Source: Callorhinchus milii (taxonomy: Eukaryota). From it: DNA of 64,000 nt. Below are positions 7,251 to 58,473 of the stretch, one piece after another. The notes beneath the pieces are model-generated. The model worked only from the letters and a program-made list of their open reading frames with translations. It had not been told where the DNA came from and did no database searches. Positions within the stretch are counted from its first letter, which is position 1. Every line of letters begins with the position of its first letter. The stretch spans positions 134,666,001-134,730,000 of the forward strand of contig NW_024704742.1 in the NCBI RefSeq assembly GCF_018977255.1, in the 5' to 3' direction. Both the position numbers and the translations under genes were made by a program.

Positions 7251-7406
7251 GGTAAAGGTAGTCATTTCAGAACCGAGACAAGAAACATCCAAAACAGTGC
7301 ATTGTAGGACAATCAGGCCAAACCTGCAAACCTCCTACAATCAGGCCAAACCTCTTCAACACCCACTTTTGGCATTCAGATGTTAACAATTCCCTTTTTG
7401 TATAAA

Positions 7407-7412
7407 TTTAAT
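7407..7412 (-). terminator. Candidate poly(A) signal ATTAAA of NARS1 copy A
   Basis: ATTAAA on the minus strand ~250 bp after the stop, at the position homologous to the copy B signal. Confidence 0.55.
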
Positions 7413-7664
7413 GGACACAGCATATACAAAAAGACACTCAACAAAAAGAAAATCAGTGCACTTAATGCTTTTTGGGGTCATTTAATATAGATTAGGAGTT
7501 GGTGAAACAATAATTGCTTGAAGGTTACATGTTAAGGAAACAGGCAAGAAAAGCATTTTTTAATGACATATGCAATGTTTAATCAGCTGTGGTTTGTTTC
7601 TAAGTGGTTTCCTTTTGCTCAGATTTCTTTCAATCTTGCAGAACATTGAGAATTAGTTGAGGCA

Positions 7665-10600
7665 TTACGGTTTGCAACGCTGAACGAAACGTGGGTACAA
7701 GACGACATCTCTGATATGGTGCCTGTTGAGAAGCCAAGTTAAGAAACGTTCCAGCCCCAATCCATATCCGCCATGTGGACACGTGCCATATTTACGCTGG
7801 GGAGGAAAGAATAAGTAAGTTACTGCGTGAGGATTTACAGAAATCTAACTGGCTGACCTAAATCTAAGTGGCTCTTTGATGAGAAACCCAGACACATTTC
7901 TTAAAGGAAAAGAAAATTGGGCTCTAACTTACCTGGTCAGTGTACCAGTAATATGGAGTGCAATCAATCCCTTCACGTTTGTAACCCTCCAACAGCTCAT
8001 CACTGTCCCAGATACGCATCGATCCTCCCACAATCTCACCAACATTCGGCATCAGAACATCAACCTGGAAAACAGCTCAGATTATAACATCAGAAACCAA
8101 ATTATTCCTTTAGTCCTGTCTACGAGGTTACAAACAAAAACTTCAGGTTTCACAACACACGCACGTTTGGTCTGTAACACAAAGATAGTTTCAATAACAT
8201 TTTCTCTTAAACAAATCAAGTTACACAACGACAATTTACCGAAAATTTGCTCATCCTACTCTTGTCAGTCTCAGTCATTTCAAGAACTGTGGAAAACCTT
8301 CGTCCACACTAAAATTGAGTTCCAACTGATCTTAAACCTTAATAGCATAAAAGTAATGACCGTGAGGAATGCAGACGTCTGGAGTCTTTTCTGAGCTCTA
8401 TTTTATGCAAGCGGCGTATTGGGGGTAATGAGATACCATCCACGTGCACAGCACAGTCTCCAAGACATGGACAAATCCAATATAAAGATTATTAAATTAC
8501 AGGTTACAGTACAACAGCATCAATTACATGCAGCTGTGCAACAGTCAAAGCTGTCAGTTCACCTCATTTATATACAAGTCAGGGAGAGCAAGGATCTGAA
8601 GACAATACTAAGCTTGCTTTCCCTAGTCTAAATCAAAGCCCATTGGCAAACGGCACCAGGACACAGAATGTAGCCTGCACAGATCATTTGGTGATAAATA
8701 AAGTCTGATGATGGCTATAAATCTAAAAGCTCTTTGGAGGACTGCTTCATTTGGGCCAATTCACAGATGTGTTTGACTTCAACGAGCCGCCCACAATGGC
8801 TACACGTGCAACCTAGGCACTGACCGATTCAGTCAGCCTGCGATCCTCAGGGCAGCGCTCCATGTAGAAAGACTTGATCTCAGCAGGGAAGCGACACAGC
8901 AGAATTGGCTCGTTGATCGCGTCGGTCATCATTCTCTCCGGAGCCTCGGGAATATCCTGTGGGAGGAAAACATAACAGGTTGATTTTGTCCAGACACATG
9001 ACTGTTAATAACTGGCCTCGATCACTTTCTCAAGTTCAATATTTACCCTCAAACACAGTCACTCAACTTTACAGTAAATCCTGTGAAGCACTTTGGGACT
9101 TTCATGACGTGAAAGGCACTGTACCAAATACACAGATTACCTTTCCAAACTCTGGATCAAAGCAACAAAGCTCTCTGCCACCTCAATAATTTAGCCCTTT
9201 AATAAACCAGGTGTCACCATACAAATGTGGCAAATAGGATACACAGCACAGATCATCACTGGTATTTCACATAGATTTAACAAGTGATAGGAATAAGTTT
9301 AGCAACATTTTAACAGCAACCCTACCTACAGCACCAAGCCAGCTCTTCAACTTGTTCAGTGCCCTGGCCTCAACCACTCTCCCGACAACCTGTCTGTCGG
9401 TCATCCCTTAGCCAAAGAAATTCTCCCCAGTTTCTGTGATAACATGTCCTTTAGAACTCTGGGAGTCTTGTCCTTTTGCCTTGACATTATTTAAAGCATT
9501 GTTCTGGATTTACTTTCTCCATGATACAGGCTATATACTTGCTAGTGATCATCCCATTGTTTGTTATTCTTGATACGGTAAGTTACAATGCTTGGCTGCT
9601 TCCTCCAAATCAATAGTAAGTATAGTTGCTATTAAGATTTTGCTGAACTTATTCTCATCACTTGTTGAATCTATATGAAACACCAGTGATGATCTGTGCT
9701 GAGTATCCTATTTACCACATCCTACGTCTCTCCCCCCTCCCCCCACCTTTGTAACTACACTGAGTAACCGAGCCATTAATAGGCAACACTAACAGATCAC
9801 AGCATATAACTCAGAGGTGCCCACTGAATACCTCCCAGATTTGAACCTAACCTCCCATTACCACCACCCTAAGCTTCCACCCCCAGGAACAGTTACCAAT
9901 TCACATTCACATCTTACCCTCAAAGACCACTGACAAGTATATTTCTATATCACTTTACCTCTAAATCTCTCTCCTGTCTCACACTGCTCCTCAACCAGAA
10001 CACTCTTCCTCTATCCCTTGCTCCATCCTTCCCGATCTTCAGATCGCGCCTGAAGACCTTCCTCTTCGACCGTGCCTGCAGTCACCTTCCCCCCCACTCG
10101 GCATCATGCTCCGCCACTATCAAGGGCTCCGGGATGTTATAAAAATGCAACACTCACTTCTCCAAACTCGTAGAAAGTTCCATCTTCCTTTTTATAGTCG
10201 TGCTCTTTGAGCCAGGTGATGGCATCAGTGTAGTTCATCCTCCTGAACGGGCGCTTGGGCGGCTGAAATTCCTAAATTAAAAAAAACGCAAAAGAAGACA
10301 TTAACACAGAGACATTCAAGCCAAGTAGCTTCTCCTGATTCTATTGATTTTATTTAGTGGTTATTTAGTTATTTAGTGGTATAAAAGCTGAACAAATGGC
10401 CAGGCTGATATCTTTACACTAAACAGAGAGAGGTTTTCCTGTCACTTACTGGATGCAATTCACGCACAAGATCTCCAAACGGTGACTTGAGAATACGGTC
10501 AACCACGTCACACACCAGATCTTCCAGACGGTTCAGAAGGTCATCGTAGGTAATAAAGGCACATTCTCCCTCAATGTGAGTGTACCTACAAGTTAGAGCA

Positions 10601-13600
10601 CACATAATTGAAGGTGCTCTCACTGCAATTCTACTGCATTAGACTATGTGAATGGCTCCATCCATCATGTCATAAGTGGGGCTCAAAATTGAAACAGTCT
10701 TCATAATAATATGACAATCCTTGCATTTGATATAGCACCTGATCACGTCTTTGAGACGTCTCAAAGCTCTTCACATAATATACTGTAAAGTGAATTGACT
10801 GTATATTTTGTGTGCGATTCGCAGCAGCCAATTGCGTACAGCAGTGTCCACAAACAGTCATGGATTGAAGTGACCACTTTATTATTGTTTTATTTTTTGA
10901 AGGAATTACTATCCCTGGAAAAGCGATCCGCCAATCGACTAACAACCAGGTTCCTACTTACTCCTAGATAAACAGAATTGTGTGGAGTAAGGAAACTTGT
11001 CAATGATTCGCTCTGCCAGGAATCAAAACCAGGTCTCTTGCTTGCAAGGCGAGTGCTCTATCCACTGAGGTACAGGACTGCATAAACTTATAAACAGAGT
11101 TTTTGAGAGACATGGCCCAGAGCTAGTGAAAACAAAACTAAGTTTGTAAATAACGCATTTACAGGAAAACAAGAATATTGTGCTCTGAATAACAAACCAC
11201 CTTCTTTGGCAAAGTAATAATAATAGTCTTTGTATTTGAAATAGCATCTTGTCACATTATTGAGACATCTCAAAGCACTTTGTAGAATTGATTGTAAAGT
11301 GGATTGACTGGGTGTATTCTGTAGGTGAAACCCGTCAGCCAATTTGTGCACCATCGTGGATTGAGTGACCAAATTCCTTTTTGGTGGGATTATTAACCCC
11401 GGAAAGGAAAACGCACAGCAATGTCCCACAAACAGTCGTAGATTGAAAATGACCAATTTATTATTGTTTGTTGGTTTTGGAGGGATTATTATTAGGCTCT
11501 GTGTGGAGTAAGGTAACTTGCCCACGAGGTTTCGCCCTCTGCCGGGAATTGAACTCAGGTCTCTCACTTGCAAAGCGAGTGCTCTAACCACTGAGCTACA
11601 GGACTCCATGATAAACACTTTAACAATGGCGGACACTGAGCCGGGGAAAGAGGGGAGATGAGCGTAGGTACGATCAAAAAGGAAGGTCTTCGTGTGAGAT
11701 CTGAAGATGGGTAAGGAGGGAGCAAAGTGGGGATTGAGGCTGGGAGTTTTGAGGTTTAGTGGCTGAAAACACGGCTGCTGATGTAGTGGAAGGGCTCGAG
11801 GGATGTAAAGATGGCCCAATTCATTGTGTTTGTGTGTGTGGTGGTGGATGGGGGGAGGGGCTGAGGGTGTGAGAGATTAGCAACACTTTCTATATAATAC
11901 TCGTTTTCCTATAAATGCCCTATTTCTTATCTTAGTTTCATTTTCACTTAGCCGTTTGGTCTCTTGGCAAAACTTCTGTTAATAAGTTCTTTTTATCCTT
12001 CAGGTCAAGTACTCTCTATGTCTCACTGGAATCTTGTGCTCTGAATAACAAACCACCTTCTTTGACAAAGTAATAATAATAGTCTTTGTATTCGAAATAG
12101 CATCTCGTCACATTATTGAGACATCTCAAAGCACTTTGTAGAATTGATTGTAAAGTGGATTGACTGGTTGTATTCTGTGGGCGAAACCCGTCAGCTAATT
12201 TGTGCACCATCGTGGATTGAGTAACCAAATTCTTTTTTTGTGGGATTATTAACCCCGGAAAGCGATTTGCCAAATGACTACCAACCGTTTTCCAACTTAC
12301 TGTTAGGTAAACAAGTTCTAGGCGTGTGGAGAAACTTGCCTATGGTTTTGTCCCGCCTGGAAATTGAACACGGGTCCTAACCGGGCTAACCATAATTCAC
12401 TGCTGTTTTCGTGTTCATGAACCAATAGTTTAATAGCAACACAATAGAGCATGACAGTTAAGGAATGTAAATGCTCACAAAAAAGAAAGGTTACTGACTC
12501 TGCAAGGTGTCTACGTGTCCGAGACTGTTCAGCACGATAGGACTGGGCGATGCAGAAAACATCCCCAAGGGAAGGCAGGCAGGTCTCCAAGTACAGTTGA
12601 GAAGACTGGGTCAGAAAGGCTTCCTCTCCAAAATAGTTCATTTTGAAGAGAGTGGAACCTCCCTCCACCTGTGTCTGCACCAATGTCGGTGGAGTGATCT
12701 GGAGGATTAAAAATACATCAACCAAAATGCTCAGTTGCTTCAACATGTAGAAATTAAACGCTTCTCCTCTCACGTACTGTCATAGTTGGGTGTTCACTTG
12801 TGGCCAGGCAATGTGAACCCAAAGAGCAACAACAACAAAATGGATGGGTTAGAAAGATGAATTTCTAACCCTTGTGGAACCCTTCTAATCTTCTTGTAAG
12901 TAAGGACTTTTAACTCTCAGTCCAGTCTGACACCCCCAATACAGTGCTGAGGGTGTGCTGCATTGTTGGAGGTGCCGTCCTTCAGACGAAACAAACATCT
13001 GCCCCCCCCCCCCCTTGCACACTTAGCACAAAGAAGACGGCAAGTAACGTACCTCAAAGTAGCCGCGGTCAAAGTAGTGGTCCCTAAAGCACTGTATCAG
13101 TGCGGATCGTACTTTGAAAATCTTGGACATGTTCTCCCCTCTCAGCATCATGTGACGATTGTTGAGCTGCACGTCTACGTCAGATTCCTCGTTCAGCAAA
13201 TTGTCTGCACCTCCAGGTGGGGCCAGGCCGATCAGCTCCCAGTAATCACAGATCAATTCGTGCCCACCAGGAGCCTGAGGAAAGAGTCAAGGCACCACTT
13301 TAAAGCAGAAGTGGATGCATAGAAAGGAACATCTTTCCTCATCAAAGCCCTCACTGGTTTTCATTTGCCCTTAAGTTAACTACATTAATAATACACTCAG
13401 TCTCCCTTTCATTCACACAGAAAGTGCATAGTTGAAAAAAACTGCACGTTGTCAATATTTGAAAAGACATCAATGCTTAAAAAGTTGCTGCCAATTTATT
13501 TTTTGAAGATACTAGAAACCACGGTGCACTTATATAGCGCCCTCCATGCAGGGTAGTGTCTCAGAGCGCTTAACAGTGGCGGAGCCCGACTCCAAACCTG

Positions 13601-16600
13601 GGGGACGGGGGAGGTGGCATAAGCACGGTCGAACAGGAAAAGTTTTCAAATAGGACTTGAAAGAGAGGAGATTCTTCATTCAAGAGAAGATTGATTCTGG
13701 GCTTGGGATAAAACACAGCTCAGTCAGAGGTTGGAATAGGAGCAAGATGTGCATGAGACAAATTATCCGGGTTGTTCTTTTTCCTACACTTTTCTTATGT
13801 GTTCATCATATCCTTACCATCTTCCCTTCTGGTACAATCTTCAAGGTACCATAAAGTGCAACGGAGCTCTCTGTGGACAGGACCAGTGCATTGTAACATT
13901 GACACTGCAAGAGGAAAAGCAGAATTGTTTTACGTTCTGATGAATTGCATTTAAAACACACGTACTCTTTACCGTAGTTTGTGGGTAAATACAAACACAA
14001 CAGAAAACGCACCCAACTCTGGTTGTACATATCAAATTAATTAGCGATCCCAAAATGTTTTTATATTATTGCAAGCAATGATTGTATTGCTAAAGTGAAC
14101 AAAAAAAATCACACGATTAAGGCAGTTGTTGAACACCTTGAGTGTTGAACACTTGTATTGGTAATGTGCACCATACTTTATACAATTTAATGAATTTTGC
14201 ATTTAATGAATTGTAATAAAGAAAACATAAGGCTCTTTACCAGCTCATCACTGAGTACACACTGCAGGAATCCTGTGCCATCTCGCAGAATCACAAACAT
14301 CAAGTTCTTTCCTGTAAAGACAAACGTTACAGTCATCACCTTTCCTAATAGCAAACATTTGTCTTACTGTTTAAAGTGTAATACAACAACAATCCTTGGA
14401 TTAATGCAGAACACTCATCTCCATGCTTCAGGGCATCCAAACCACACAAGGTGGATACCATGGGGTGGGATAGCTGGCCTGGGAGAAAATTACTTTCTTT
14501 TTCCAAAGAGATGATAGCAAATCATAACTTGTAACACTATTACCAACATTTTAAATAACTGACTCAACAGTATTTTCGATATTTTAAAAGAGAAAAGAAT
14601 TTATAAAGTATGTACAGCACGGAAACAAACCACTTGGCTCAAACAACCCATTCCGGTATTCATACTCCCAACCAATCTTCCCCCATTCCTTATTCTCTCT
14701 CACACCTTTCGATTCCCCCCTCCCTCATGTCACGGTCTAGCGTCCTCTGAAGGCTTCTACAATAGTTGATTCAACCACCGCTTCAGATGGCAAGTTCCAA
14801 AATCCCACTATCCTCTGCGTTCTTTTTTAGATCCCCTAATCTCTCTTATACTTGTGTCCCCTAGTTACAGATCCCCAACCAGGAGACATAGCCTATTTAT
14901 GTTCAACTCATTAAACCATTTTATAATTGTAAACACCTCTATCAGGTCCTCTCTTAAATATCTCCTCTAGCGAATAAAGGCCTAACCTATCCAGGCTATC
15001 CTGATAGCAGTAACCTGCCAGCCCTTGTAAGATCCTCATAAACATAATACATTAAACATAATGTGGTCAAACCAAGGTTTTATATAAATTCAACATCACC
15101 TCCTTACTTTTATATTCTAGCCCTCTGGATATGAAGCCAGACCCCATTGGCCCTTGTACTAGCCTTATCTACCTGTGGAGCTACATTTAGAGATTTTGGG
15201 ATCTGAATCTCCAGATCTCTTTGCTGCTTTACTCCTCCTAGGTTCCTATCACCTAGACTCACCCACCCCCCCACCACACACCCACATCCCACACCCATTA
15301 CCTACATGTGTAGAAAGAAACAGAAAACAATTACAAGAACTGAGTAATGTTTCCACCCTAGAAATAATCTCAAAGGCAGAAATCGCACCTTGTCTGCGTA
15401 ATCTATGAATCCAGCCAAAGATCTTCACTCGCTCCCCTCGATGAGCTTCAGTGTCTCGTATTTTCACCTGCAGGAAAGAAATTCAAAGTTTATCCGCATC
15501 CAACACATTCCAGATACAGGCACATTTCTGTCCCAAACACAAATCCACAAAGCAGTATAAACAGTGTTACTTTGAGGGAAAAGCCACAAAAGCTTAATAG
15601 AAGTGTAAACGCAGATTTCCAGGGCAGCACACAATTTATTAGCAAGCTCAGAAGAGGGAAAGGGAATAGACAAGTTGAGATCCCATTACTTTTAATGAGA
15701 GCAGTGAATACATGGAATGGATTCTAAGGGAGGCAGTGGAGGCTGACTGCATCAGCAAATTTAATAGATAATTATGTGACACAGAGATTGATTTAAGAGA
15801 CAAGAGATAAGAGCAGTGCACATTTCTTTTAAAGAACTCTTGAGATCACCAGATGAACCTCAGTTTCTATTCCACTCCTTTGTAATCCTATTGCTGTGAG
15901 CAATTATTGTCTTTATACTTACTAACTGAACGTGTATTTTTGTGCCAATGAGCGATTGGTGATGTGTCAGGTCTTTCCCACAAATATCAAGTCCTGCTAA
16001 GGGCTCAGACACCTTCAATGTGCACAGAACCACATCAGTTCATTCACTGATGGATAAGAAAGTAGAAACATGTACCGAACCCATGTCTAAGTCACAGTCC
16101 TGAAAGGATTATCTCAATATTTGAGTTAAAAGTTAATTTTTTTCCCCACAAGGCCCACCAAACTTCAAAGTCATCAGGCTTCAACCAGACTGTACAGGGC
16201 TCTTGTCTGGAAAGGATTGCTCACCAGTTGAAGAGGACTGATGCACTGTTACTTTTCAAATATTACTTACCAACTTTGGCTCTGGAAGACTGGGGTCCAG
16301 TTTAATGACTACCTTTCTGGCCTCTTCCAGATTCTTCTCTCGGCGTAACGCATCTTCAATCTGTTGAGAGTGATATTCGTTTTAAAATAATAAAGGTTGA
16401 ATTTGGCATCCTATAAACCATGTGTTGATAGGAGCACCCACTCGCCTGTACCACAAGATCTTTGGTTCCTGAGGGCACGGCAGCTCTGATGATGCAGTGG
16501 TTAGAGCTGCAACTTACAAACAGGAACTTTCTGCTTCAAACCACAGTTCTTGTTGAGTTTGGTGTTCTCAGATCTTGTTGCATGGGGTAATAATAATAGT

Positions 16601-19600
16601 TCTTGCATTTGATATAGCACCTGATCACGTCATTGAAATATTTCATAGCGTTTCACAGAATATATTGTAAAGTGGAGTGACTGTGCATTTTGTGGGCAAA
16701 ACGTGGCAGCCAATTGACTAAATTAGTTAAATTAAATTGGGGTGGCTAAATTAGGCTCTACCTCCCTAACTCACAGGGATAAGAAGGTTAAAATAGGCCA
16801 GGTTACCCATCCTAGTCTCTCTTTGGAACCCACCACTGTAGTGTACGTATGGCAGCCGTGTGGGGAGAGTCAGGCTTAGATGTGACACCCTCTACAATCG
16901 AGGCAGGATTGACAGTTTCACCCCAATCGCAACCTCTGTGGGTTCAGAGAATGCAATTAGTATTGAATTACATACAGCAATGTGCCTGGACTGTGCCCTC
17001 TAGGAATTAGTCTGCCCAAAATAATTTTGCTTACAATACATAAATCAGGGGTCGGTTTCAATATTTATTGTCCCCACACCTTATTCAAAGGTTGATTGTC
17101 AGCCTGTGCTGACTGAGGCAGGAATTTTGAGTGCTACACGCCTCTATCCTTAAACTACTTCCCTCTCTCTACCCCTTTGTCACTCCCACTTCCCATCAGT
17201 TTTTAAGTCCAGCCTTAAAACCTACTCCTTCTCCACAAGGCCCACGATCACACAGAAGCCTTCTAACACACGTTAGGAACTGACACTGAAATGCTCTTGG
17301 AACTAGACAGCAGGAATAGAGAAAAAAACCTTCATATTCTGATCATTAGTAAAGGAAACAGAGTATGTCAGAGCGGACTACTAATATGTCAAAAGTGTAT
17401 GAATGACTACTCGCACACTTTTCTGTTAACACTCACCTCTTTTTGGGCTGCTGTTTCATTCTTCACCTGTCCTCGTTGACAGAGCTTCTTGAGATTTTTC
17501 AGCTGTGTGTTAGATATAACATCCCAGCGCTGAAAGATAGATTATTGCACTATTAAATGTGGCCTTGCAATATGTGAACTTACTGTGAATGTGATCGTCT
17601 CACTGGAAGTAGAAGGGTTAACTTCACTCTATTATGGCAGTAACAAGGTGATTATCTTAACCCCCTATTTCTTCCTTGCTCTCTCAATTCCCTCCCATAC
17701 TTGCAATGAGCCAAGTTTGTACGTCTGTACTGATGAAGCATTCTCACCAGGACATTGATAGAAGCAGCGACACGTGCTTCATTGCAAAAGTCAATGTATT
17801 TGTTAACTATTGGCAGGTTTACCTAAAATGCAACCTTGCTACATCGACTGACATCAATCCCCTTCCATAACTCCAGATTCCCAACTAATGTGTGTTTGTA
17901 CAGTTTGATCTATCGCAGCGTTGTCCAATGCGTTAGTCACACGTAGCGATTGGGAATCCAGAGGTGGTGAAATTGTATTTTGATCAGTAAATAAAAAATG
18001 AGTAACAGCCATCGTCATTGGACATGTGATCGCAAAACTCGTATTCACACGACATATGTATGTGTACTTTGATGTTTTGGTATGCTTGTTGGTAAAATGG
18101 TAAGCAACATGTGAATGTTTTATGATTGTTGTGTATGCTTTACTTCCTCGGTTATTGCTTGTTGGTTATCGGCTAAAACAGTATGTAACACGATTGAAAA
18201 CGCCGGATCTAGTGCGGCTCACAAAAGAAAATAGATGTTTAAGTAAAAATACATGTAAACATACATGCAGTGCATTTTTTCCTTTATGTTTCATTGTGTA
18301 AGTAAGGCATTTTCTACTAACATTAGTGCATGTGGCTAAAACAGAGTTGTCCTTGGCACACCCGTGGCATTAGTTCTTTGCATGTTCATACGCATGGTTT
18401 GGAAAAGCTAAAGCAAAAGGAAACACACTGTACCTCGCCTTCCTTTTGGGAATCCACGTAAATAGTAGGGAATGGCTCCTTCCCAAATGCAGTCAGTGCC
18501 TAAAAGACAGAAACGAAATGAATGCAAGGGTCACGAGAACATTTAAAATGAAACAGAAGCTCTTCCTCTTTGAAAACACAAAGCAGAATTAATTTTTGTT
18601 TTTTTACCTGAAGAGCTGTCTTGAACGGTTTCTCTTTCGTTCCTGTGCCTGCTGAATCATCCCCTTCACGATCAGACACGTACAGTTCATCTACAAAATA
18701 TTAATTCTCAATCTTTTAGTTGTCGAGAGGAAAAGCAGCAGCAGTTATTGTGTCCATCAAAAGACCTTTTTGGGGGAACAATATTAACAACAACAACAAC
18801 AACAAGATTCCATTTATAAAGCGCCTTTCACGTCAGGAGGACGTCCCAAGGCGCTGCACAGTTGGGTCAGGACCCGAGCAGGGGGGAAATGCTCAGGGTG
18901 AGGGGAGGGAAGGGAGGGAGCGAGGAGGGGGAAATGGTCAGGGTGAGGGGAGGGAAGGGAGGGAGCAAGGAGGGGGGGAAATGGTCAGGGTGAGGGGAGG
19001 GAAGGGAGGGAGCGAGGAGGGGGAAGAGAGTCGAGAGGGGAGCTGAAGGCTCGGTCAAAGAGAAAGGTTTTGAGACCGGCCTTGAAGGAGGAAAGGGAGG
19101 AAGCGGCGAAGGCACTGGGGGAATGGAGTTCCAGAGCCTGGGGGCTGAGAGGCTGAAGGTCCGACCACCGATGGTAGGGCGATTGGGGCGGGGGACGTGG
19201 AGCAGACCGGAGCCGGAGGAACGGAGGGTACGGGCAGGTAAGTAGGGGGATAGTAGGTCAGAGAGGTAGGAGGGAGCAAGGCCGTGATGGCCTTATAGGT
19301 GAGGATGAGGATCTTGAAATCAATCCTCTGGGGGATGGGGAGCCAGTGGAGGCGAGTGAGGGTGGGAGTGATGTGGTTGCGGTGCCTGGTGTGGGACAGT
19401 ACACGAGCTGCAGAGTTCTGAGTGACCTGCAGCTTGTAGAGGGAGTGGCGGGAAGGCCGGCGAGGAGAGAGTTCCCATAGTCCAGCCTTGAGGTGACAAA
19501 CGCGTGGACCAGGGTTTTAGCAGCGTGAGGGGTGCTTACCAGTGCTTCTTTACTCTGCCCCCCAGCTCTGTAAATTACCTACAAAGCAACCAACCTCAGT

Positions 19601-23380: not shown

Positions 23381-23399
23381 CCTCCTCCTCCTCCCCACC

Positions 23400-23795: not shown

Positions 23796-23799
23796 TCGG

Positions 23800-30300: not shown

Positions 30301-33300
30301 CATCTGGTGATCTCAAGAGTTCTTTAAAAGAAATGTGCACTGCTCTTATCTCTTGTCTCTTAAATCAATCTCTGTGTCACATAATTATCTATTGAATTTG
30401 CTGATGCAGTCAGCCTCCACTGCCTCCCTTAGAATCCATTCCATGTATTCACTGCTCTCATAAAAAGTAATGGGATCTCAACTTGTCTATTCCCTTTCCC
30501 TCTTCTGAGCTTGCCAATAAATTGTGTGCTGCCCTGGAAATCTGCGTTTACACTTCTATTAAGCTTTTGTGGCTTTTCCCTCAAAGTAACACTGTTTATA
30601 CTGCTTTGAGGATTTGTGTTTGCGACAGAACTGTGCCTGTATCTGGAATGTGTTGGATGCGGATAAACCTTGAATTTCTTTTCTGCAGGTGAAAATACGA
30701 GACACTGAAGCTCATCGAGGGCAGCGAGTGAAGATCTTTGGCTGGATTCATAGATTACGCAGACAAGGTGCGATTTCTGCCTTTGAGATTATTGCCTAGA
30801 ACCTTTCTAGGGTGGAAACATTACTCAGTTTCTGTAATTGTCTTTGCAGGAAAGAACTTGATGTTTGTGGTTCTGCGAGATGGCACAGGATTCCTGCAGT
30901 GTGTGTTCAGTGATAAATTGGTACAGAAGCCTATGTTTTCCTCCTTATTAAGATTCATTAAATAATATTGCTTAAAGTGTGGTGGTTATTACCAATGCAG
31001 GTCTTCATAACTCCTGCCTTAACCTTTAGGAAATAACATAATGGGATAAAATACATAAGTAGCTTGGGACATATCCGGAATGCGAACTAGATGGATCTTG
31101 GTCTTTTTTCATCTAGCATTTCTTATGTTCTTAACCGTGTTCACAGACTGTTCACTTTAGCAACACAATCATTGCTTGCAATAATATAAATATTTTGGGA
31201 TCACTAATTAATTTGAAATGTACCTCCTTACTTGGCTGTGTTTTATGTTGTGTTTGTATTCCAAACAATTTAGCCGCAAACCATGGTAAGTGTTTGTTTT
31301 TAAATGTTATTCATCAGAACGTAAAACAATTCTGCTTTTCCTCTTGCAGTGTCAATGTTACAATGCACTGGTCCTGTCCACAGAGAGCTCCGTTGCACTT
31401 TATGGTACCTTGAAGATTGTACCAGAAGGGAAGATGGTAAGGATATGATGAACACATAAGAAAAGTGTAGGAAAAAGAACAACCCGGATAATTTGTCTCA
31501 TGCACATCTTGCTCCTATTCCAACCTCTGACTGAGCTGTGTTTTATCCCAAGCCCAGAATCAATCTTCTCTTGAATGAAGAATCTCCTCTCTTTCAAGTC
31601 CCATTTGAAAACTTTTCCTGTTCGACCGTGCTTATGCCACCTCCCCCGTCCCCCAGGTTTGGAGTCGAGCTCCGCCACTGTTAAGCGCTCAGAGACACTA
31701 CCCTGCATGGAGGGCACTATATAAGTGCACCGTTGTTTCTAGTATCTTCAAAAAATAAATTGGCAGCAACTTTTTAAGCATTGATGTCTTTTCAAATATT
31801 GACAACGTGCAGTTTTTTTCAACTATGCACTTTCTGTGTGAATGAAAGGGAGACTGAGTATTATTAATGTAGTTAACTTAAGGGCAAATGAAAACCAGTG
31901 AGGGCTTCTGATGAGGAAAGATGTTCCTTTCTATGCATCCACTTCTGCTTTAATGTGGTGCCTTGACTCTTTCCTCAGGCTCCTGGTGGGCACGAATTGA
32001 TCTGTGATTACTGGGAGCTGATCGGCCTGGCCCCACCTGGAGGTGCAGACAATTTGCTGAACGAGGAATCTGACGTAGACGTGCAGCTCAACAATCGTCA
32101 CATGATGCTGAGAGGGGAGAACATGTCCAAGATTTTCAAAGTGCGCTCCGCACTGATACAATGCTTTAGGGACCACTACTTTGACCGCGGCTACTTTGAG
32201 GTACGTTACTTGCCGTCTTCTTTGTGCCTCGTGAGCAAGAGGTTGACAGTAAATCTGGTGCAGCAACTTCTGAATAATCTTTCAACTGTGCAACTGTGTG
32301 TGTGGGGGGGTGGGCAGATGTTTGTCTTGTCTGAAGGACGGCACCTCCAACAATGCAGCACACCCCCAGCACTGTATTGGTGGTGTCAGACTGGACTGAG
32401 AGTTAAAAGTCCTTACTTACAAGAAGATTAGAAGGGTTCCACAAGGGTTAGAAATTAATCTTTCTAACCCATCCATTTTGTTGTTGTTGCTCTTTGGGTT
32501 CACATTGCCTGGCCACAAGTGAACACCCAACTATGACAGTACGTGAGAGGAGAAGTGTTTAATTTCTACATGTTGAAGCAACTGAGCATTTTGGTTGATG
32601 TATTTTTAATCCTCCAGATCACTCCCCCGACATTGGTGCAGACACAGGTGGAGGGAGGTTCCACTCTCTTCAAAATGAACTATTTTGGTGAGGAAGCCTT
32701 TCTGACCCAGTCTTCTCAACTGTACTTGGAGACCTGCCTGCCTTCCCTTGGGGATGTTTTCTGCATCGCCCAGTCCTATCGTGCTGAACAGTCTCGGACA
32801 CGCAGACACCTTGCAGAGTCAGTAACCTTTCTTTTTGTGAGCATTTACATTCCTTAACTGTCATGCTCTATCGTCTTGCTATTAAACTATTGGTTCATGA
32901 ACACTAAAAACAGCAGTGAATTATGCAGGAACAATTTTAAGTTAACTCGGCAGCTCAAAATTTAAGGCTGTTCAATTGGTTTAAAAAACAGCTATTGACT
33001 TTATTCAATTAAGTTCACACTTAATTCACACTTTATTCAATTAAGTCCACACAGGTTTTTTGATCGTTTCGAATCATTTTCGAATTGCACATCTTGTTTT
33101 GTAGTCTATATACAGTAAACTCCTGATAACATCACTCCAAGGTAAAAGAGTCCCATAGTGTAGTGGTTAGGACCCGTGTTCAATTCCCGGGCGGGACAAA
33201 ACCATAGGCAAGTTTCTCCACACGCCTAGCACTTGTTTACCTAACAGTAAGTTGGAAACCAGTTAGTCATTTGGCAAATCGCTTTCCGGGGGTAATATTC

Positions 33301-36300
33301 CCACAAAAAAAGAATTTGGTCACTCAATCCACGACTGTTTGTGGGACACTTGTGCACAATTGGCTGCAGGGTTTCGACCACAAAATAGCCCCAGTCAATC
33401 CACTTTACAATCTATTCTACAAAGTGCTTTGAGATGTCTCAATATGTGACAAGATGCTATTTCAAATATAAGGACTAGTATTATTACTTTGCCACAGAAG
33501 GTGGTTTGTTATTCAGAGCACAAGATTCCAGTGAGACATAGAGAGTACATGACCTGAAGAACAAAAAGAATTTACAAACAGAAGTTTTCCCAAGAGACCA
33601 AACAGCCAAGTGAAAATGAAACCTAAGATAAGAAATGAAGCATTTACAGGAAAAAGGAGTATTTAGGAGCAGAGTGTTGCTAATCTCTCTCACCCTCACC
33701 CCCCCCCCCCCACCATACACAGAAACACATTGAATTAGACCATCTTGCCCACAAAATACCTGCAGTCAATCCACTTTACAATATATTCTGCAAAGTGCTT
33801 TTGAGATGCCTCAATGTTGTGATAAAGCAGTATATATGTTATATTATATATCAAATGTAAGAAATATTATTATTATTTTGCACAGAAGATTGTTATTCAG
33901 AGCCCCAGAACAATAAGGGGCACAAGATTCCAGTGAGACATAGAGAGTACATGACCTGAAGGACAAAAAGAACTTATAAACGGAGATATTCCCAGAGACA
34001 CAAGGCCAAGTGAAAATGAATTTAAGATAGGAAATAAACCATTTACAGGAAGACGAGAGTTTAGAAAATATGCGTGGGCAATCTCTCTCTCTCTCGCACA
34101 CAAACTCCTCCCACCACCACTCCCCTCACTGATTGAACTAGGCCATCTTTACATCCCCTGTCCCCTTCCACTACATCAGCAGAAGCTGTGTTTTCAGCCA
34201 CTAAGCCCCAAAACCAAACGGCTAAGTGAAAATGAAACTAAGATAAGAAATAAGGCATTTATAGGAAAACGAGTATTATATAGGTGTTGCTAATCTCTCA
34301 CACCCTCAGCCCCTCCCCCCCACCCACCGCCACACACACAAACACAATTAATTGGGTCATCTTTATATCCCTCGAGCCCTTCCACTACATCAGCAGCCGT
34401 GTTTTCAGCCACTAAGCCCCAAAACTCCCAGCCTCAATCCCTCCACTTTGCTCCCTCCTTATCCATCTTCAGATCTCACACGAAGACCTTCCTTTTTGAC
34501 CGTACCTACGCTCATCTCCCCTCTTCCCCCGGCTCAGTGTCAAGCTCCACCATTGTTAAAGAGCTCTAAGACTCTACGCTGTGTGACCGGCGCTTGTGCT
34601 GCAAAAATGCAAGTTGTTGAATCGAGCAACAATACTAAAAATAGCCATCCTTTCATTACTGGTTTATCATGGGATTTACAGGGTTGGATAGACCGCAGTC
34701 ATAGATGGTTGTTAGTCGATTGATAGATTGCTTTCTGGGGGTAATAATCCCTTCAAAAAAATTATTATTATAAGAGCTCAGTGACTAGTTATCTGGAGTG
34801 GCTAGATGAGCATAGGTCCTCCAGGATCACAATGGTGCGATGTGACTGGTGTGTGTGATCAGCGAAGGTTGGACTTGTATGCTCAGATGCGTTGCAGAGG
34901 CCTCTCATCTATTGCAAGGCACCAGATCGGGCACGGAGCCTCTGCAAAGTAACACGCAATCTTAAGGGACTAGTTGTTCTGATCAGTTTCATACCTGTGG
35001 TTAATCACAAACACCTTCTATATTATCGCGAAAGCCTGTTTTTTTGTGTGGGTGTGTGTAAGATATCTAAAATTCTCGTTTTCCTGCACACTCCACCTCA
35101 CTGAGCCAGTCCAGAACCTTGGGGTCTTGTTTGACCCTCAACTATCCCTTCTACCCCACATCTGTGCCATAACCCGCTCTGCCTTCCCCCACCTCCACAA
35201 CATTGCCCGGCTCCGACACTGTCTCGCACTGCAGGCCGCCGATACCCTCATACATGCTTTCATTTCATCAAGGCTCGACTATGCAAACTCATTGCTTGTT
35301 GGCCTCCCCAACTCCTCCCTCCACAGGCTACAGATTATCCAGAACTCTGCAACCTGTGTCCTCTCCCTCACCAGGCTCCGCGAACCTATCACCCCAATCC
35401 TTGCCCAACTCCACTGGCTTCCCATCACACAGAAGATACAGTTCAAGATCCTGGTCCTCCCTTCAAAGCCCTCCACGGTCTTGCTCCCCCCTACCTCTGC
35501 GACCCCTTAGCATCCTGTTCGCTCAGGTCCATAACTCTGTCCAGCACCTTGGGACTTTCCTAACGTGAAAGACGCTTTACAAATGTAATTTTGTGTTGTT
35601 GTAAATGCTTTATTTGCTAACTTTGCTAACTTTAATTTTCACTAGCTCTAGGCCCTGACACTTGAAGAAAACTCTATTTATAAGTTCTTTTTTCTTCAGG
35701 TCACATCCTCTCTGGTTGATTATAAACATAATTGGCCAATGAGGGGATATGAGTTTCTATGATTTTTTAAAAAAATTACATAAATAATATTTAAGAATTT
35801 GATCACTGAATCCACGACTGCTGTGTGCAATTGGCTGCTACATTTATTCAACAATATATACAGTCAATTCACTTTACAGTATATTCTGTGAAGCGCTTTG
35901 AGACATCTTGAAGATGTGATCAGGAGTATATCAAATGCAAAGATTATTATGACGATTTTATTATAAATTTGAATTTTGAGTCTCACTTATGACATGATGG
36001 ATGGAGCCATTCACATAGTCGAGTGCAGTAGAATTGCAGTGAGAGCACCTTCAATTGTCTCTAACTTACAGGTACACTCATATTGAGGGAGAATGTGCCT
36101 TCATCACCTACGATGACCTTCTGAACCGTCTGGAAGATCTGGTGTGTGACGTGGTTGACCGTATTCTCAAGTCACCGTTTGGAGATCTTGTGCGTGAATT
36201 GCATCCAGTAAGTGACAGGAAAACCTCTCTCTGTTTAGTGTAAAGATATCAGCCTGGCCATTTGTTCAACTTTTACACCACCCGTAGTAACCGCTAAATA

Positions 36301-38860
36301 AAATCAGGAGAAGCTACTTGGCTTGAATCTCTCTGTGTTAATGTCTTCTTTTGCGTTTTTTTTTAATTCAGGAATTTCAGCCGCCCAAGCGCCCGTTCAG
36401 GAGGATGAACTACACTGATGCCATCACCTGGCTCAAGGAGCACAACTATAAAAAGGAAGATGGAACTTTCTACGAGTTTGGAGAAGTGAGTGTTGCATTT
36501 TTATAACATCCCAGAGCCCTTGATAGTGGCGGAGCATGATGCCGAGTGGGGGGGAAGGTGACTGTAGGCACGGTCGAAGAGGAAGGTCTTCAGGCACGAT
36601 ATGAAGATGGGGAAGGATGGAGCAAGGGATAGAGGAAGAGTATTCTGGTGCAGGAGCAGTGTGAGACAGGAGAGAGATTTAGAGGGAAAGTGATATAGAA
36701 ATATACTTGTCAGTGGACTTTGAGGGTAAGATGTGGGTTTGAATTGGTAACTGTCCCTGGGGGTGGAAGCTTAGGGTGGTGGTAATGGGAGGTTAGGTTT
36801 AAATCTGGGAGGTATTCAGTGGGCACCTCTGAGTTACATACTGTGATCTGTTAGTGTTGCCTGTTAATGGCTCGGTTACTCAGTGTAGTTACAAAGGTGG
36901 GGGGAGGGGGGAGAGACGTAGGATGTGGTGAATAGGATACTCAGCACAGATCATCACTGGTGTTTCATATAGATTCAACAAGTGATGAGAATAAGTTCAG
37001 CAAAATCTTAATAGCAACTATACTTACTTTTGATTTGGAGGAAGCAGCCAAGCATTGTAACTTACCGTATCAAGAATAACAAACAATGGGATGATCACTA
37101 GCAAGTATATAGCCTGTATCATGGAGAAAGTAAATCCAGAACAATGCTTTAAATAATGTCAAGGCAAAAGGACAAGACTCCCAGAGTTCTAAAGGACATG
37201 TTATCACAGAAACTGGGGAGAATTTCTTTGGCTAAGGGATGACCGACAGACAGGTTGTCGGGAGAGTGGTTGAGGCCAGGGCACTGAACAAGTTGAAGAG
37301 CTGGCTTGGTGCTGTAGGTAGGGTTGCTGTTAAAATGTTGCTAAACTTATTCCTATCACTTGTTAAATCTATGTGAAATACCAGTGATGATCTGTGCTGT
37401 GTATCCTATTTGTAAGATGACTCAGTGTTTAATAAGGGTAAGCTTTATGAGGTGGCAGAGAGCGTTGCTGAGAGTTTGCAAAGATGATAATGTTTGTATT
37501 TGGCATAGCTCTGGCGCTTACAGCATCAGCATCCAAGGCTGCACTCTCCACCTCTCAAAGCCGGTCAGGAACCTCGGTGTTCTGTTCGACCCTGAGCTGT
37601 CCTTTCTTCCTCATATCCGCACCACAACTGGCACCGCCTTCAATCACCTCCAGAACATCGCCAGACTACGGCACTACCTCACCCCTCACGCTGCTGAAAC
37701 TCTGGTCCACGCCTTTATCACCTCAAGGCTGGACTATGGGAACTCTCTCCTCGCCGGCCTTCCCGCCACCTCCCTCCACACTGCAGGTCATTCAGAACTC
37801 TGCAGCTCGTGTACTGTCCCGCACCAGACACGGCGACCACATCACTCCCTCCCTCGCTCACCTCCACTGGCTCCCCATCCCCCAGAGGATCGAATTCAAG
37901 ATCCTTATCCTCACCTACAAGGCCATTCACGACCTTTCTCCCTCCTACCTCTCTGACCTACTATCCCCCTACTTACCTGCCCGTACCCTCCGTTCCTCTG
38001 GCTCCGGTCTGCTTCACATCCCCCGCCCCAACTGCCCTACCATCGGTGGCCGGGCCTTCAGCCTCTCAGCCCCTCGGCTCTGGAACTCTATCCCCCAGTG
38101 CCTTCGCCTTGCTTCCTCCCTTTCCTCCTTCAAGGCCGGTCTCAAGACCCTTCTCTTTGACCGTGCCTTCAGCTCCCCTCTCGACTCTCTACCCCCTCCT
38201 CGCTCCCTCCCTTCCCTCCCCTCACCATTTCCCCCCTGCTCGGTTCCTGACTCAACTGTACTGCACCTTGGGACGTCCTCCCGACGTGAAAGGCGCTCTA
38301 TAAATGGAATCTTGTTGTTGTTGTTGTAGCGCCTTTCATGTCAGTAGGACATCCCAAAGTCCTTCACAGGATTTACTGTGAAGTGGAGTGACTGCGTTTG
38401 TGGGCGGACACTGTTCGAGGCCAGTTAGTTACAGTCATGTGCCATGAACAAAATTAACCTTTTATGCTTTTCTCCTACAGGATATTCCCGAGGCTCCAGA
38501 GAGAATGATGACCGACACGATCAACGAGCCAATTCTGCTGTGTCGCTTCCCTGCTGAGATCAAGTCTTTCTACATGGAGCGCTGCCCGGAGGATCGCAGG
38601 CTGACTGAATCGGTCAGTTCCTAGGTAGCACGTGTAGCCATTGTGGACGGCTCGTTGAAGTCAAACACATCTGTGCATTGGCCCAAATGGAGCAGGTCCT
38701 CCAAAGAGCTTTTAGATTTATAGCCAAATGATCTGTGCAGGTTACATTCTGTGTCCTGGGTGCTGTTTGACAATAGGTTTTGATTTGGACTGGGGAAAGC
38801 AAGCTTAGTATTTCCTTCAGATCCTTGCTGTCCCCCACTCTGTCTCAGTCTCTATCTCTG

Positions 38861-38894
<34 letters not shown>

Positions 38895-40466
38895 CTTCTG
38901 TCCTGTTGAAAATAAACAAAAGAAGAAGGGAGCTTTGTAACTAAACAAAAACTGAGGTGAACTGACTGACTGTTGCACAGCTGCATGTAATTGATGCTGT
39001 TGTACTGTAGCCTGTAATTTAATAATCTTTACATTGGATTTGTCCATGTCTTGGAGACTGTGCTGTGCACGTGGATGGTATCTCATTACCCCCAATACGC
39101 CGCTTGCATAAAATAGAGCTCAGAAAAGACTCCAGACGTCTGCATTCCTCACGGTCATTACTTTTATGCTAATAATGCTAAGGTTTAAGATCAGTTAGAA
39201 CTCAATTTTAGTGTGGACGAAGGTTTTCCACAGTTCTTGAAATGACTTGGGACTGACAGCTACAAGGGTACAATGAGCAAATTTCCGGTAAATTGTCGTT
39301 GTGTAACTTGATTTGTTTAAGAGAAAATGTTATTGAAACAATCTTTGTGTTCAGACCAAACGTGCGCGTGTTGTGAAACCTGAAGTTTTTGTTTGTAACC
39401 TCGTAGACAGGACTAAAGGAATAATTTGGTTTCTGATGTTATAATCTGAGCTGTTTTCCAGGTTGATGTTCTGATGCCGAATGTTGGTGAGATTGTGGGA
39501 GGATCGATGCGTATCTGGGACAGTGATGAGCTGTTGGAGGGTTACAAACGTGAAGGCATTGATTGCACTCCATATTACTGGTACACTGACCAGGTAAGTT
39601 AGAAATTTGTCTGGGTTTCTCTTGAAAGAGGCAGTGTTATTTGCAGGATGTCCTCACCAGCACAAAACTTTGCATCCATCACGCCAATCCTCACCAGGCT
39701 CCAGCTGGCTCCCTGTTCCCGAACAGATTTCAAGCTTTCAATCCCTTCACACTCTACAACCAGAAGCAAAACCAACATAGCCTTGAGGGCCCAAACAGCT
39801 TTATCATCTGATGTAATTTCAGTGGACTTGCAATGTTTTTAAACTACTAGCAGTAAAATGCTGATATGTTTGAGAGGAAGCTCGACTTTCACATAAGGGA
39901 GAAGGGTAATAATAATAATATTCCTTGCATTTGATGAAGCGCCTTACGGCTTCGAGATATGTCTGGTCTCCAAGCAGTTTACAGAATATACTATAAAGTG
40001 AATTTACTGTATATTTTGTGGGCGAAATGCGGCAGCCAGTTACGCACAGCAATTGTATTGCTTGTAATTGTAGTAATTAATTGTAAATATAATAATAAAT
40101 AATTATACAGGAGGAAGTAAGCACCTTGGGACGTCCTCCCTGTGTGAATAATTTGTTGCTGTAAACAGTGAGTTCAGACTAGTGTTGAGTAAACCCTGGC
40201 AAGGGCCCTGATTTCATGCTGTACATTTTTTGTAAATTTTTGTTAACGTACGTAGTCACATGTGGCTCATCAGATTTAGTATACGGTTGGCCGGTTAGAT
40301 TTCTGTATGCAGTAACTTATTCTTTCCTCTCCAGCGTAAATATGGCACGTGTCCACATGGCGGATATGGATTGGGGCTGGAACGTTTCTTAACTTGGCTT
40401 GTCAACAGGCACCATATCAGAGATGTCGTCTTGTACCCACGTTTCGTTCAGCGTTGCAAACCGTAA
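24282..40466 (+). CDS. NARS1: Cytosolic asparaginyl-tRNA synthetase, copy B (ancestral orientation), 15 coding exons, 560 aa, intact ORF
   Basis: Exons 24282-24327 ([15 protein letters not shown]), 26971-27053, 27157-27222, 28611-28703, 29796-29885, 30689-30767, 30850-30920, 31350-31436, 31979-32200, 32618-32817, 36072-36207, 36372-36485, 38481-38612, 39462-39593, 40335-40466 (TAA). All introns are GT-AG and the exons total 1683 nt. Same motifs as copy A, and same strand as ATP8B1 and FECH. Confidence 0.96.
24340..24980. repeat. C-rich minisatellite of (TG/CA)TATCTCCCTCCCCCC-like units at the start of copy B intron 1
   Basis: Dozens of ~18-20-bp degenerate units; source of the spurious Pro/Ser- and Gly-rich ORFs. 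Confidence 0.9.
25870..26790 (+). mobile_element. Degenerate L2 LINE fragment (copy B intron 1)
   Basis: [64 protein letters not shown]. Confidence 0.85.
28073..28386 (+). mobile_element. Young tRNA-derived SINE (Deu-like core, L2-type tail), short form; specific to NARS1 copy B intron 3
   Basis: Head GTGGAGTCCTGTAGCTCAGTGGTTAGAGCACTCGC…GAGTTCAATTCC (Pol III A/B boxes), core TGTGGGACATTGCTGTGCGCAATTGGCTGCCGCGTT, (TTA)n tail. Absent at the homologous copy A site (~17750). Confidence 0.85.
33155..33485 (+). mobile_element. tRNA-derived SINE, long form (copy B intron 10; homologue in copy A at ~12075-12385)
   Basis: Head remnant, linker, core and tail; shared by both NARS1 copies, so it predates the duplication. 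Confidence 0.7.
35085..35600 (+). mobile_element. L2 LINE fragment (copy B intron 10)
   Basis: [18 protein letters not shown]…[18 protein letters not shown]…[16 protein letters not shown]. Confidence 0.85.
37512..38326 (+). mobile_element. 5'-truncated L2 LINE (ORF2 C-terminus + 3'UTR), specific to NARS1 copy B intron 12
   Basis: [14 protein letters not shown]…[21 protein letters not shown] / [12 protein letters not shown]…[21 protein letters not shown]…[16 protein letters not shown], with one frameshift and a (TTG)n tail. Absent in copy A at ~9120. Confidence 0.9.
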
Positions 40467-40704
40467 TGCCTCAACTAATTCTCAATGTTCTGCAAGATTG
40501 AAGGAAATCTGAGCACCACTTAGAAACAAACCACAGCTGATTAAACATTGCATGTCATTTAAAAAATGTTTGCTTACCTGTTTCCTTAACATGTAACCTA
40601 CAAGCAATTATTGTATACCAACTCCTAATCCACTGCTGTATTAAATGACCCCAAAGAGGATCGTCTGCAAAGAGTTTTCTTTTTCTTCAGTGTCTTTTTG
40701 GTTC

Positions 40705-40710
40705 ATTAAA
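40705..40710 (+). terminator. Candidate poly(A) signal ATTAAA of NARS1 copy B
   Basis: cATTAAAtgtatacaaaaag matches the copy A context cATTAAAtttatacaaaaag. Confidence 0.55.
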
Positions 40711-40739
40711 TGTATACAAAAAGAGAATGGTTAACTCTA

Positions 40740-41190
40740 CCGACTGCATACTTACCCAGACCAAACTCCTTACCCACATCTTACCAGTTCTGGCCAGGCT
40801 CCACTGGCTCCACCATCACCGAATGGATCGACTTCAAGATCCTCACACTTGTGTTCAAATCCCTTCATTCTCCCTACCTCTCTGACCTCCTCACTCTCCA
40901 ATCCACCACCTGGCATCTTTGCTCGATTGGCACTGGCCTCCTGCTCATCCCTTGCACCCTCTTCCCCCACCACCACCATTGGAGGCTGTATTTTCAGCCA
41001 CTACGCCCTGAATCTGTAGAACACTAATCCTCAATCCCTCCACCTTGTCCCCTTTTTCAAATCCCGCCTGAAAACCTTCCTTGGCCATGCTGATGGCCAC
41101 CCCCCCACCTCGGAGTCAGGCTCCATCACTGTTCAGCACTCTTGAGACACCACCCTGTGTGTAGGGTGCCACATAAGTGCATGTTGTTGT
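40740..41190 (+). mobile_element. L2 LINE 3' fragment downstream of NARS1 copy B
   Basis: [23 protein letters not shown]; (TTG) tail; gttaac on both sides (possible target-site duplication). Absent in copy A. Confidence 0.75.
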
Positions 41191-42071
41191 TAACCATTGA
41201 ATGCCCAAACTGGTTGCAGAGGTAAGCAGGTATTGCTTAGTTAAGCTCCAAGTCTCCCAACTAGTGGAACTGTTGCTCAATGGGAAGGGACATGTGTCTG
41301 AGTTGTAGACAGAAAGATGGTTGCAATGCTCTCACCCTTTTCATGCTGAGCTCTATTGCCACCAATACACTTGAAGGGAGTTGCTGGTACCTACCATTCA
41401 CTTAGTGAGAGTTCAAGCCTGTGCTTGTCACTGGGACATCTTTCTGACGTGAAGGGCGCTATACAAGTATAATTGTTGGATGTCAAATGACCAATTAGTG
41501 ACTCCTCCTTGGTGTAGAGAGGTAAGGGTCTTCCGGGAGCTGAAGTGGCTCCAAGGTGACCATGGAATGTCTGAATCGAGCCAGCCCTCTATGGTGGTCT
41601 AGTCCACTTTCTGAGGCAGATAACCACCAGTATTCCAGGGCACTGCTGCTGACAGCACAGCATTTGAAATAATAGTTTGAAATAATATTTTCATAAAAAT
41701 ATCTGACCCATGTTGCGTTTCTCTATCACAGTGTAACTGATTTTATTAATTTTTTTAAGTGTGTGATTTAACTGAGCTGATTGAGCCTTGAGGTAACACC
41801 TAGAATCTGACAGAAAGAATTGCTTAACTTATTTATATTTAAGAGTGAAGGTTTATTTGAATATGGACTGGGTGGAATAAATTTAAATATCGATAATTTA
41901 TACACTAGAAAAAGCAATATACTATATATTTGATATGCAAATTCAACTTCATCATCAAGTTCTCAAACCTGTATTTCCTTCTTAGTTGTGTTTTACTTAT
42001 GTTTTTTTATGCCTCTGTTTTGGTGACCCATGGATCCATTATATAATTGTGCTATCAACACTTGAGTAAGA

Positions 42072-58442: not shown

Positions 58443-58473
<31 letters not shown>

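Follow-up and report, generated by a model that had tools for sequence, protein, structure and literature searches.

Why does a vertebrate genome keep two complete genes for cytosolic asparaginyl-tRNA synthetase (AsnRS, encoded by NARS1) at a single locus? The question is raised by a stretch of 64,000 nucleotides from the elephant shark Callorhinchus milii (contig NW_024704742.1, positions 134,666,001 to 134,730,000; hereafter the window), in which two intact NARS1 genes lie head to head on opposite strands. We call the gene on the reverse strand copy A and that on the forward strand copy B. The reading that we favour, and to which we would give about an even chance, is that copy A is an old, redundant and co-expressed duplicate, and that both copies would be kept intact by gene conversion together with selection against subunits that poison the AsnRS dimer.

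Two complete NARS1 genes in inverted arms

Both genes were modelled exon by exon from their coordinates. Each consists of 15 exons and a frame of 1,683 nt encoding 560 amino acids and a stop codon; exon lengths are equal in the two copies, 14/14 introns are of the GT-AG type in each, and no frameshift or internal stop occurs in either frame. The two complete frames on opposite strands announced in a preliminary description of this DNA were thus recovered without lesions, and the distance between the two ATG codons, given there as 3086 bp, was measured as 3,086 bp. The coding span of copy A (7665..21196, minus strand, ATG at 21196 and stop at 7665) comprises exons 1-8 at 21196-21151, 18690-18608, 18499-18434, 17529-17437, 16360-16271, 15467-15389, 14311-14241 and 13904-13818, and exons 9-15 at 13274-13053, 12698-12499, 10585-10450, 10271-10158, 8956-8825, 8064-7933 and 7796-7665. 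That of copy B (24282..40466, plus strand, ATG at 24282 and stop at 40466) comprises exons 1-8 at 24282-24327, 26971-27053, 27157-27222, 28611-28703, 29796-29885, 30689-30767, 30850-30920 and 31350-31436, and exons 9-15 at 31979-32200, 32618-32817, 36072-36207, 36372-36485, 38481-38612, 39462-39593 and 40335-40466. Over 560/560 residues, the copy A protein is identical to NP_001279862.1 / AFM91006.1 and the copy B protein to XP_042191908.1 / V9KL59.

Both proteins score above the cut-off for PF20917 (AsnRS N-terminal), PF01336 (OB-fold anticodon) and PF00152 (class II D/K/N catalytic), with equal length and domain order, and both align without gaps and over their full length to human AsnRS (8TC8), with the class II motifs intact. 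The three domains are those of the vertebrate cytosolic enzyme; what distinguishes the elephant shark is that two intact genes at one locus encode them.

Comparison of the window with itself gave a chain of inverted matches pairing approximately 7380-21220 with 24260-40735. The limits of homology put arm A at about 7364-21218 and arm B at about 24257-41212, that is, arms of about 13.9 and 17.0 kb around a spacer of about 3.0 kb, which agrees with the span of 7340..41230 proposed earlier. Describing this as a palindrome of about 34 kb is right as to the inverted arms, but the term is loose: the introns are 7.2% diverged, and 22 stretches of at least 40 bp are unaligned between the arms. No extra NARS1 copy or exon relic was found in the window, and no third copy in the genome among 30 scored candidates (28/29 matches fall in the window, and one match of 42% lies elsewhere). 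Other class IIb synthetase matches occur at four chromosomal places and on one small contig.

Both proteins already exist as separate Callorhinchus milii entries, both placed on a sequence of 139,202,109 bases. Two further GenBank proteins, AFM90253.1 and AFK10725.1, carry the A residue at each of the 17 diagnostic sites and have 4 and 2 changes of their own, so that 3/3 of the full-length-type GenBank entries among those listed are A-type; judging from their accession series, we infer that all three derive from the full-length complementary DNA (cDNA) project described in PMC3466250, in the available text of which neither 'asparagin' nor 'synthetase' has a match. In an older RefSeq series, copy B and an A-type model of 404 amino acids bear the consecutive accessions XP_007901268.1 and XP_007901269.1, and the first 205 residues of copy A form a separate entry (XP_007883517.1). 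No published description of the pair was found among the papers listed by searches of the literature outside subscription journals, and 'NARS' has no match in the main text of PMC12952989 or in one supplement file of PMC3964593. The duplication is therefore already present in public databases as two proteins, and the pair is apparently annotated but undescribed in the literature. Users should be aware that what RefSeq gives under an NP accession as elephant-shark NARS1 comes from the inverted copy and has a derived N-terminus.

Divergence between the arms and selection on the copies

Well-aligned intron columns differ between the arms at 548/7,649 positions; introns are 92.8% and exons 97.6% identical. 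This divergence is distributed very unevenly (heterogeneity among introns: chi2 255, 13 degrees of freedom), being 1.1% in intron 8 and 2.3-2.6% in introns 5 and 9, whereas introns 3 and 7 reach 13% and the portion of intron 1 that can be aligned reaches 18%. None of 5,000 permutations (mean 92) gave an identical run as long as the observed maximum of 385 columns. A tract of 378 bp in intron 12 is identical in both arms (A 9236..9613, B 37030-37407) and is a candidate for recent conversion. The intron-8 segment at 13427..13812, 98.7% identical between the arms, holds a repeat fragment whose nearest other scored copies reach at most 90%. Columns no more than 100 away from a large insertion or from the end of an arm show a divergence of 10.4%, those more than 200 away one of 3-5%. 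The most diverged internal exon, exon 7 (6/71), adjoins an old A-only repeat of 991 bp in intron 6 (14333..15323), the nearest scored genomic relatives of which are about 70-76% identical over long stretches and 84-87% over 160-200 bp.

An outgroup, organism B, which we guess from its distance to be a chimaera of another family, helps to separate conversion from constraint. The region of exons 8-9 has 6 sites that distinguish A from B, against 38 that distinguish organism B from A, while the corresponding figures for intron 4 are 23 and 33 (Fisher p 0.0036); constraint alone therefore does not explain the low divergence between A and B. The intron-8 segment mentioned above is largely missing from the contig of organism B. 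Taken together, these statistics point to patchy gene conversion from arm to arm as the probable cause of the uneven divergence.

The same outgroup bears on the age of the pair. Corrected divergence in the least homogenised tracts, 14-21%, equals the distance to organism B, which is 15% in intron 4 and about 20% at the silent sites of exon 9. The split between Callorhinchus and Chimaera is put at about 187 million years in the accessible part of PMC12952989. Should organism B belong to another chimaera family, the duplication would have an age of more than 100 million years. The slow neutral rate of the Callorhinchus milii genome (PMC3964593, as far as available) and the old A-only insertion in intron 6 point to the same old age.

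In intron 12, an inverted repeat of 105 bp (87%; 9225-9329 and 9616-9720) brackets the 378-bp tract in both copies, its copy B counterpart lying at 36931-37027 and beyond 37407. It is not common in the genome, and could fold back and start conversion.

Purifying selection on the duplicate had first been argued from exons being far better conserved than introns. That argument does not hold as stated, because introns 5, 8 and 9 differ by 1-3%, like exons, and because the comparison is confounded by gene conversion, which had been overlooked; selection itself is upheld by the substitutions within the frames. Copies A and B differ at 40/1,683 coding bases, in 37 codons and at 17 residues. Over the whole frame, the non-synonymous rate (dN) is 0.013 and the synonymous rate (dS) 0.060, giving a dN/dS of 0.22 (17 non-synonymous and 23 synonymous differences; Fisher p 3e-6), and the coding dS of 6.0% is close to the intron mean. 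The ratio is 0.069 for residues 177-560 and 0.42 for residues 1-176 (Fisher p 0.022). If one copy evolved neutrally, 63% of the differences would be expected to be non-synonymous. For residues 177-560, where 3/16 are, this model is rejected (p 4e-4); for residues 1-176, where 14/24 are, it fits (p 0.39). There are no coding indels between the copies, against about 8 expected from the introns. As judged from these substitutions, the catalytic domains of both copies are clearly under purifying selection. The non-synonymous excess in the N-terminal part has p 0.01 against between-species patterns, but correction for the higher dS in this part raises the value to p 0.10-0.12; positive selection there is not supported, and dN/dS is below 1. 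For the N-terminal third of copy A, the data fit relaxation as well as adaptation.

At the protein level, 14/17 residue differences lie within residues 1-176 and the catalytic domains are unlike at 3 residues only. Compared with 19 shark and ray proteins, these three are mostly derived in B, whereas the N-terminal ones are mostly derived in A. In 139 other vertebrate proteins, 347 columns are conserved to 95% or more; of these, residue 160 is changed in A alone, residue 540 in B alone, and 7 in both. Residue 82 is C in copy A and W or F in 139/139 other proteins; residue 160 is I in copy A and V in all other proteins compared; residue 540 is V in copy B and L in 137/138 others. Organism B has the copy-B letters at codons 48, 78, 82 and 91, so that the copy A residues there are derived. 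A predicted structure of copy A (mean predicted local distance difference test score 46.7) was too poor for use, and only puts residues 78, 82 and 91 in a long helix.

Why both copies persist

Four runs were compared with arm A over 13000-21300, contigs being classed by the known A-B differences. X1 is a DNA-like run; X5 and X6 are putative RNA, a label that is a guess, no listed run being recorded as RNA, and X6 comes from another study. Run X1 gave 8 pieces, 5 A-type, 2 B-type and one mixed; over stretches in which 2-104 sites separate A from B, its A-type pieces have 0-4 deviating letters, and one spans the A-only insertion. Run X6 shows splice joints at exon borders. In exons 6, 7 and 9 it has only copy-B letters, but exons 3 and 4 show letters of either type, the copy-B letter accounting for 453.7/711.6 and 670.8/975.6, respectively; these figures are not expression levels. 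The mixed X1 contig is A-type over 16687-17304 (618 letters), then B-type by letters and size over 17305-17547, with no shared stretch of at least 20 letters at the switch. It is either a recombinant allele (possibly a segregating conversion or spacer-inversion product) or a chimera. Being B-type in exon 4, it is without copy A's L78, C82 and T91. Contig depth was also tried as a guide to copy number. It leans towards two copies for X1 and a single one for organism B, but depth is no copy number and the result was not counted: in X1, copy-specific contigs have 3.8-9.7, shared ones about 14, and repeat joints, as background, 7.8-13.0 per contig; in X17, the contig over exons 8-9 has 56.8 and two contigs over exons 2-4 sum to 64-69, against a background of 43-93.

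How the favoured reading would operate may be set out as follows. An inverted copy of the whole gene, copy A, would have been set upstream of the original, copy B, long ago in the elephant-shark lineage, most likely when one template-switch or break-repair event laid it there. Both copies would be transcribed and would encode working, largely redundant synthetases. The facing arms would recombine, and conversion would overwrite patches of them, least often beside large insertions and at arm ends. AsnRS is dimeric, and with no more than 3 differences between the catalytic domains, mixed dimers of A and B subunits should form. A damaged but expressed copy would then spoil its partner, and damaging changes in either copy would be purged; shared dosage probably adds to retention. 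For the human dimer, the accessible part of PMC12513289 reports that a catalytically dead subunit poisons its partner, and preservation of redundant paralogs by such interference is described in the available part of bioRxiv 10.1101/2025.06.13.659495. Interference agrees with the contrast between a catalytic half that forms the dimer and is frozen, and an N-terminal half that is less tightly held. The two frames, the purifying selection on both and the patchiness of the divergence are demonstrated, whereas conversion as the cause of that patchiness, co-expression in the same cell, mixed dimers, interference as the force and the age are all parts of this reading that we infer.

Several points weigh against it. 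Only about 6% of deleterious changes are interfering according to the same portion of bioRxiv 10.1101/2025.06.13.659495, so that interference slows loss and may not alone explain very long retention, and it is powerless against promoter silencing or an early frameshift. Pure redundancy does not predict W82C in copy A or its differing upstream region. The excess divergence near insertions may reflect alignment error or indel-linked mutation, and the mosaic X1 contig may be an assembly chimera. Run X5 has only copy-B letters in the rows printed, which, since contigs drop variants, is no proof that copy A is absent; moreover, the RNA label of X5 and X6 is only guessed.

The main rival to redundancy is split expression or dosage, which we regard as possible though rather unlikely: B would be driven by a CpG-island housekeeping promoter and A by a changed one, both genes would be needed, and conversion would be incidental. 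The upstream region of copy B is CpG-island-like (23801..24300, plus strand; GC 0.69-0.71, CpG observed/expected 0.76-0.85), whereas the 300 bp upstream of copy A are weaker (GC 0.54, CpG observed/expected 0.51), and apart from one short motif and about 22 bp ahead of the ATG the two upstream regions have no sequence in common. The B-only letters of X5 beside both types in X6, and the uniformly A-type GenBank entries, lean the same way, but contigs give no levels and drop variants. In a second alternative, early neofunctionalisation, A would keep its catalytic domain, but its N-terminal extension and anticodon-binding domain would be in the course of being reshaped for a non-translational or altered tRNA-binding role, a change that went further in TARS3. 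The concentration of differences in residues 1-176 (dN/dS 0.42 there and 0.07 beyond), the derived state of A at 48, 78, 82 and 91, and W82C and V160I at sites of invariant class speak for it, as does the link between the human AsnRS N-terminal extension and CCR3 chemotaxis (PMC6883034, part available). Nevertheless, the N-terminal excess loses significance once local dS is taken into account, its dN/dS below 1 also fits relaxed constraint on one copy, and length and domain order are unchanged; we consider this improbable. The data gave no sign of a stress- or tissue-specific isoform or of a non-canonical function, possibilities that had been raised at first. Equally doubtful to us is a composite in which A would be a TARS3-like early offshoot, more than 100 million years old. 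Dimer interference and conversion would tie its catalytic half to B, and its N-terminal half, under a promoter of its own (F48, L78, C82, T91, I160 and new first residues), would have acquired a distinct role, non-translational or in tRNA binding.

Copy A might instead be dispensable and look constrained merely through repair by conversion from B. The conversion signals, the fit of residues 1-176 to one neutral copy and an exon 4 in X1 that may be B-type in A-type surroundings agree with this. However, 13 synonymous differences persist in the catalytic exons, and a neutral A with 4-9 synonymous changes there should have accumulated 13-29 amino-acid changes where none is A-derived; coding indels are lacking, and putative A-type transcripts and cDNA-type entries exist. 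We think this very unlikely, and the same holds for the suggestion that the assembler placed side by side in cis what are in fact two highly divergent haplotypes, for instance those of an old inversion polymorphism. The compared stretch left out the spacer and no spanning contig was seen, so that the head-to-head geometry rests on the assembly; part of the supplement of PMC8302630 records duplicate heterozygous contigs that had to be removed from the published long-read assembly; and the older annotation splits off the first 205 residues of copy A. Against an artefact, 7.2% intron substitutions and 22 long unaligned stretches far exceed what is usual between alleles (a figure for heterozygosity was looked for and not found), which together with the separate flanks of A and B makes alleles unlikely. 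Furthermore, the window is without any N, the older series lists A- and B-type models under consecutive accessions, and both types occur together in 3/4 conspecific sources (window, X1 and X6).

The pair may be compared with other duplicated synthetases. According to PMC10200997, no aminoacyl-tRNA synthetase gene other than TARSL2 is duplicated in vertebrates, a statement to which the NARS1 pair is an exception in one lineage. Like TARSL2 (TARS3), copy A is a second cytosolic synthetase with its catalytic core kept and its differences gathered at the N-terminus. In contrast, TARSL2 occurs throughout the vertebrates and its N-terminal extension has twice the length, whereas the NARS1 copies are lineage-restricted, adjacent, 97% identical and both of 560 amino acids, with no new extension. 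Only one NARS1 gene per species was found in 22 shark and ray species, and no other holocephalan NARS1 protein, among the best 120 matches of each protein search. That the duplicate is lineage-specific is thus borne out among sharks and rays, but NARS1 duplication is not unique to the elephant shark, since second full-length entries exist under the names Molossus molossus, M. nigricans, Mesocricetus auratus and Nycticebus coucang. These too are full-length frames in vertebrates without recent genome doubling, but they differ by 2 residues per pair and are therefore young, and the elephant-shark pair is set apart from them by depth, adjacency and selection. The second copies of hamster and loris lie on other sequences. 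The second Molossus entries have accessions in a consecutive range, on a sequence of the same length within each species, and may be a local duplication shared by the two species.

In having inverted arms of more than 10 kb, a short spacer and signs of conversion, the locus recalls palindromes of the mammalian X and Y chromosomes (available parts of bioRxiv 10.1101/800185 and PMC3723533). Their arms are more than 99% identical, whereas the NARS1 arms are about 93% identical with many copy-specific insertions, hold a housekeeping gene, and lie on the largest chromosome-scale sequence. Paralog interference in homomeric proteins (bioRxiv 10.1101/2025.06.13.659495, as far as that source is accessible) likewise concerns a duplicated homo-oligomer with known dominant-negative behaviour; for the NARS1 pair it is a proposed mechanism. 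Because a local inverted duplicate under conversion belongs to a well-known class of mechanisms, the surprise is moderate. With this natural pair one can ask whether dimer poisoning and conversion suffice to retain an essential enzyme in redundant form, and the locus also supplies two AsnRS variants that differ at the N-terminus. If copy A has indeed diverged in function, it would be the second functionally diverged duplicate of a cytosolic synthetase in vertebrates.

Flanks, spacer and repeats

To the left of the pair lie 3' exons of a phospholipid-translocating P-type ATPase (1715..5220, plus strand, PF16212), presumably ATP8B1, and to the right the 5' part of the ferrochelatase gene FECH (52785..64000, plus strand, PF00762; a candidate for exon 1 lies at 52785, and further exons lie near 62830 and 63490). 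The pair thus occupies the position between P4-ATPase C-terminal exons and ferrochelatase exons that we take to be that of NARS1 in the human order ATP8B1-NARS1-FECH. Both flanking genes are on the plus strand like copy B, which makes copy A the inverted copy. This orientation and position agree with the earlier proposal that B is ancestral and A an inverted duplicate, but B is not an unaltered ancestor, having derived residues of its own (175, 416, 442 and 540, against most sharks).

The spacer (21219..24256), which holds both upstream regions, is not alignable arm to arm except for one short motif. This GC-box-like motif (21332..21352, minus strand, upstream of copy A) matches 24172-24192 (plus strand) upstream of copy B; it has 3 matches in the window and none in 100 shuffles. 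A third, exon-less copy of the upstream element (21974..22098, plus strand) is 78% identical, inverted, to 21293-21410 and may possibly be a relic or scar of the duplication junction. It sits in a CpG-rich patch (21801-22100), with no exon 1 behind it. Degenerate C-rich tandem arrays (23406-23786 and 24343-24972) flank the promoter and exon 1 of copy B and are likely to break short-read assemblies.

The 3' untranslated regions (UTRs) extend over 7364..7664 (minus strand) in copy A, the outer end of arm homology being near 7364, and over 40467..41212 (plus strand) in copy B, where a B-only repeat fragment of 462 bp (40736-41197) precedes a final 15-bp match to A (41198-41212). For the conserved poly(A) signals claimed in the preliminary description, the candidates are three ATTAAA hexamers at corresponding sites in both 3' UTRs; AATAAA is absent from both.

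Class IIb synthetase exons on a small unplaced contig (C1749:938-2657) may be a haplotig or a further duplicate of another synthetase. An entry of 74 amino acids labelled Escherichia coli clusters with vertebrate NARS1 fragments, and probably reflects contamination of that record. Elsewhere in the window, a self-inverted pair (77%) resembling a short interspersed element (SINE) lies in intron 1 of copy A (20398-20736). Rfam gave 8 tRNA-like matches (11008-62031) that coincide with dispersed repeat copies and are read as SINE heads; the highest-scoring one (61960-62031) reaches 60 bits over its full length. SINE copies 97-100% identical to one another at 42072-42240, 55298-55632 and 57686-57952, between copy B and FECH and in FECH intron 1, form a young subfamily.

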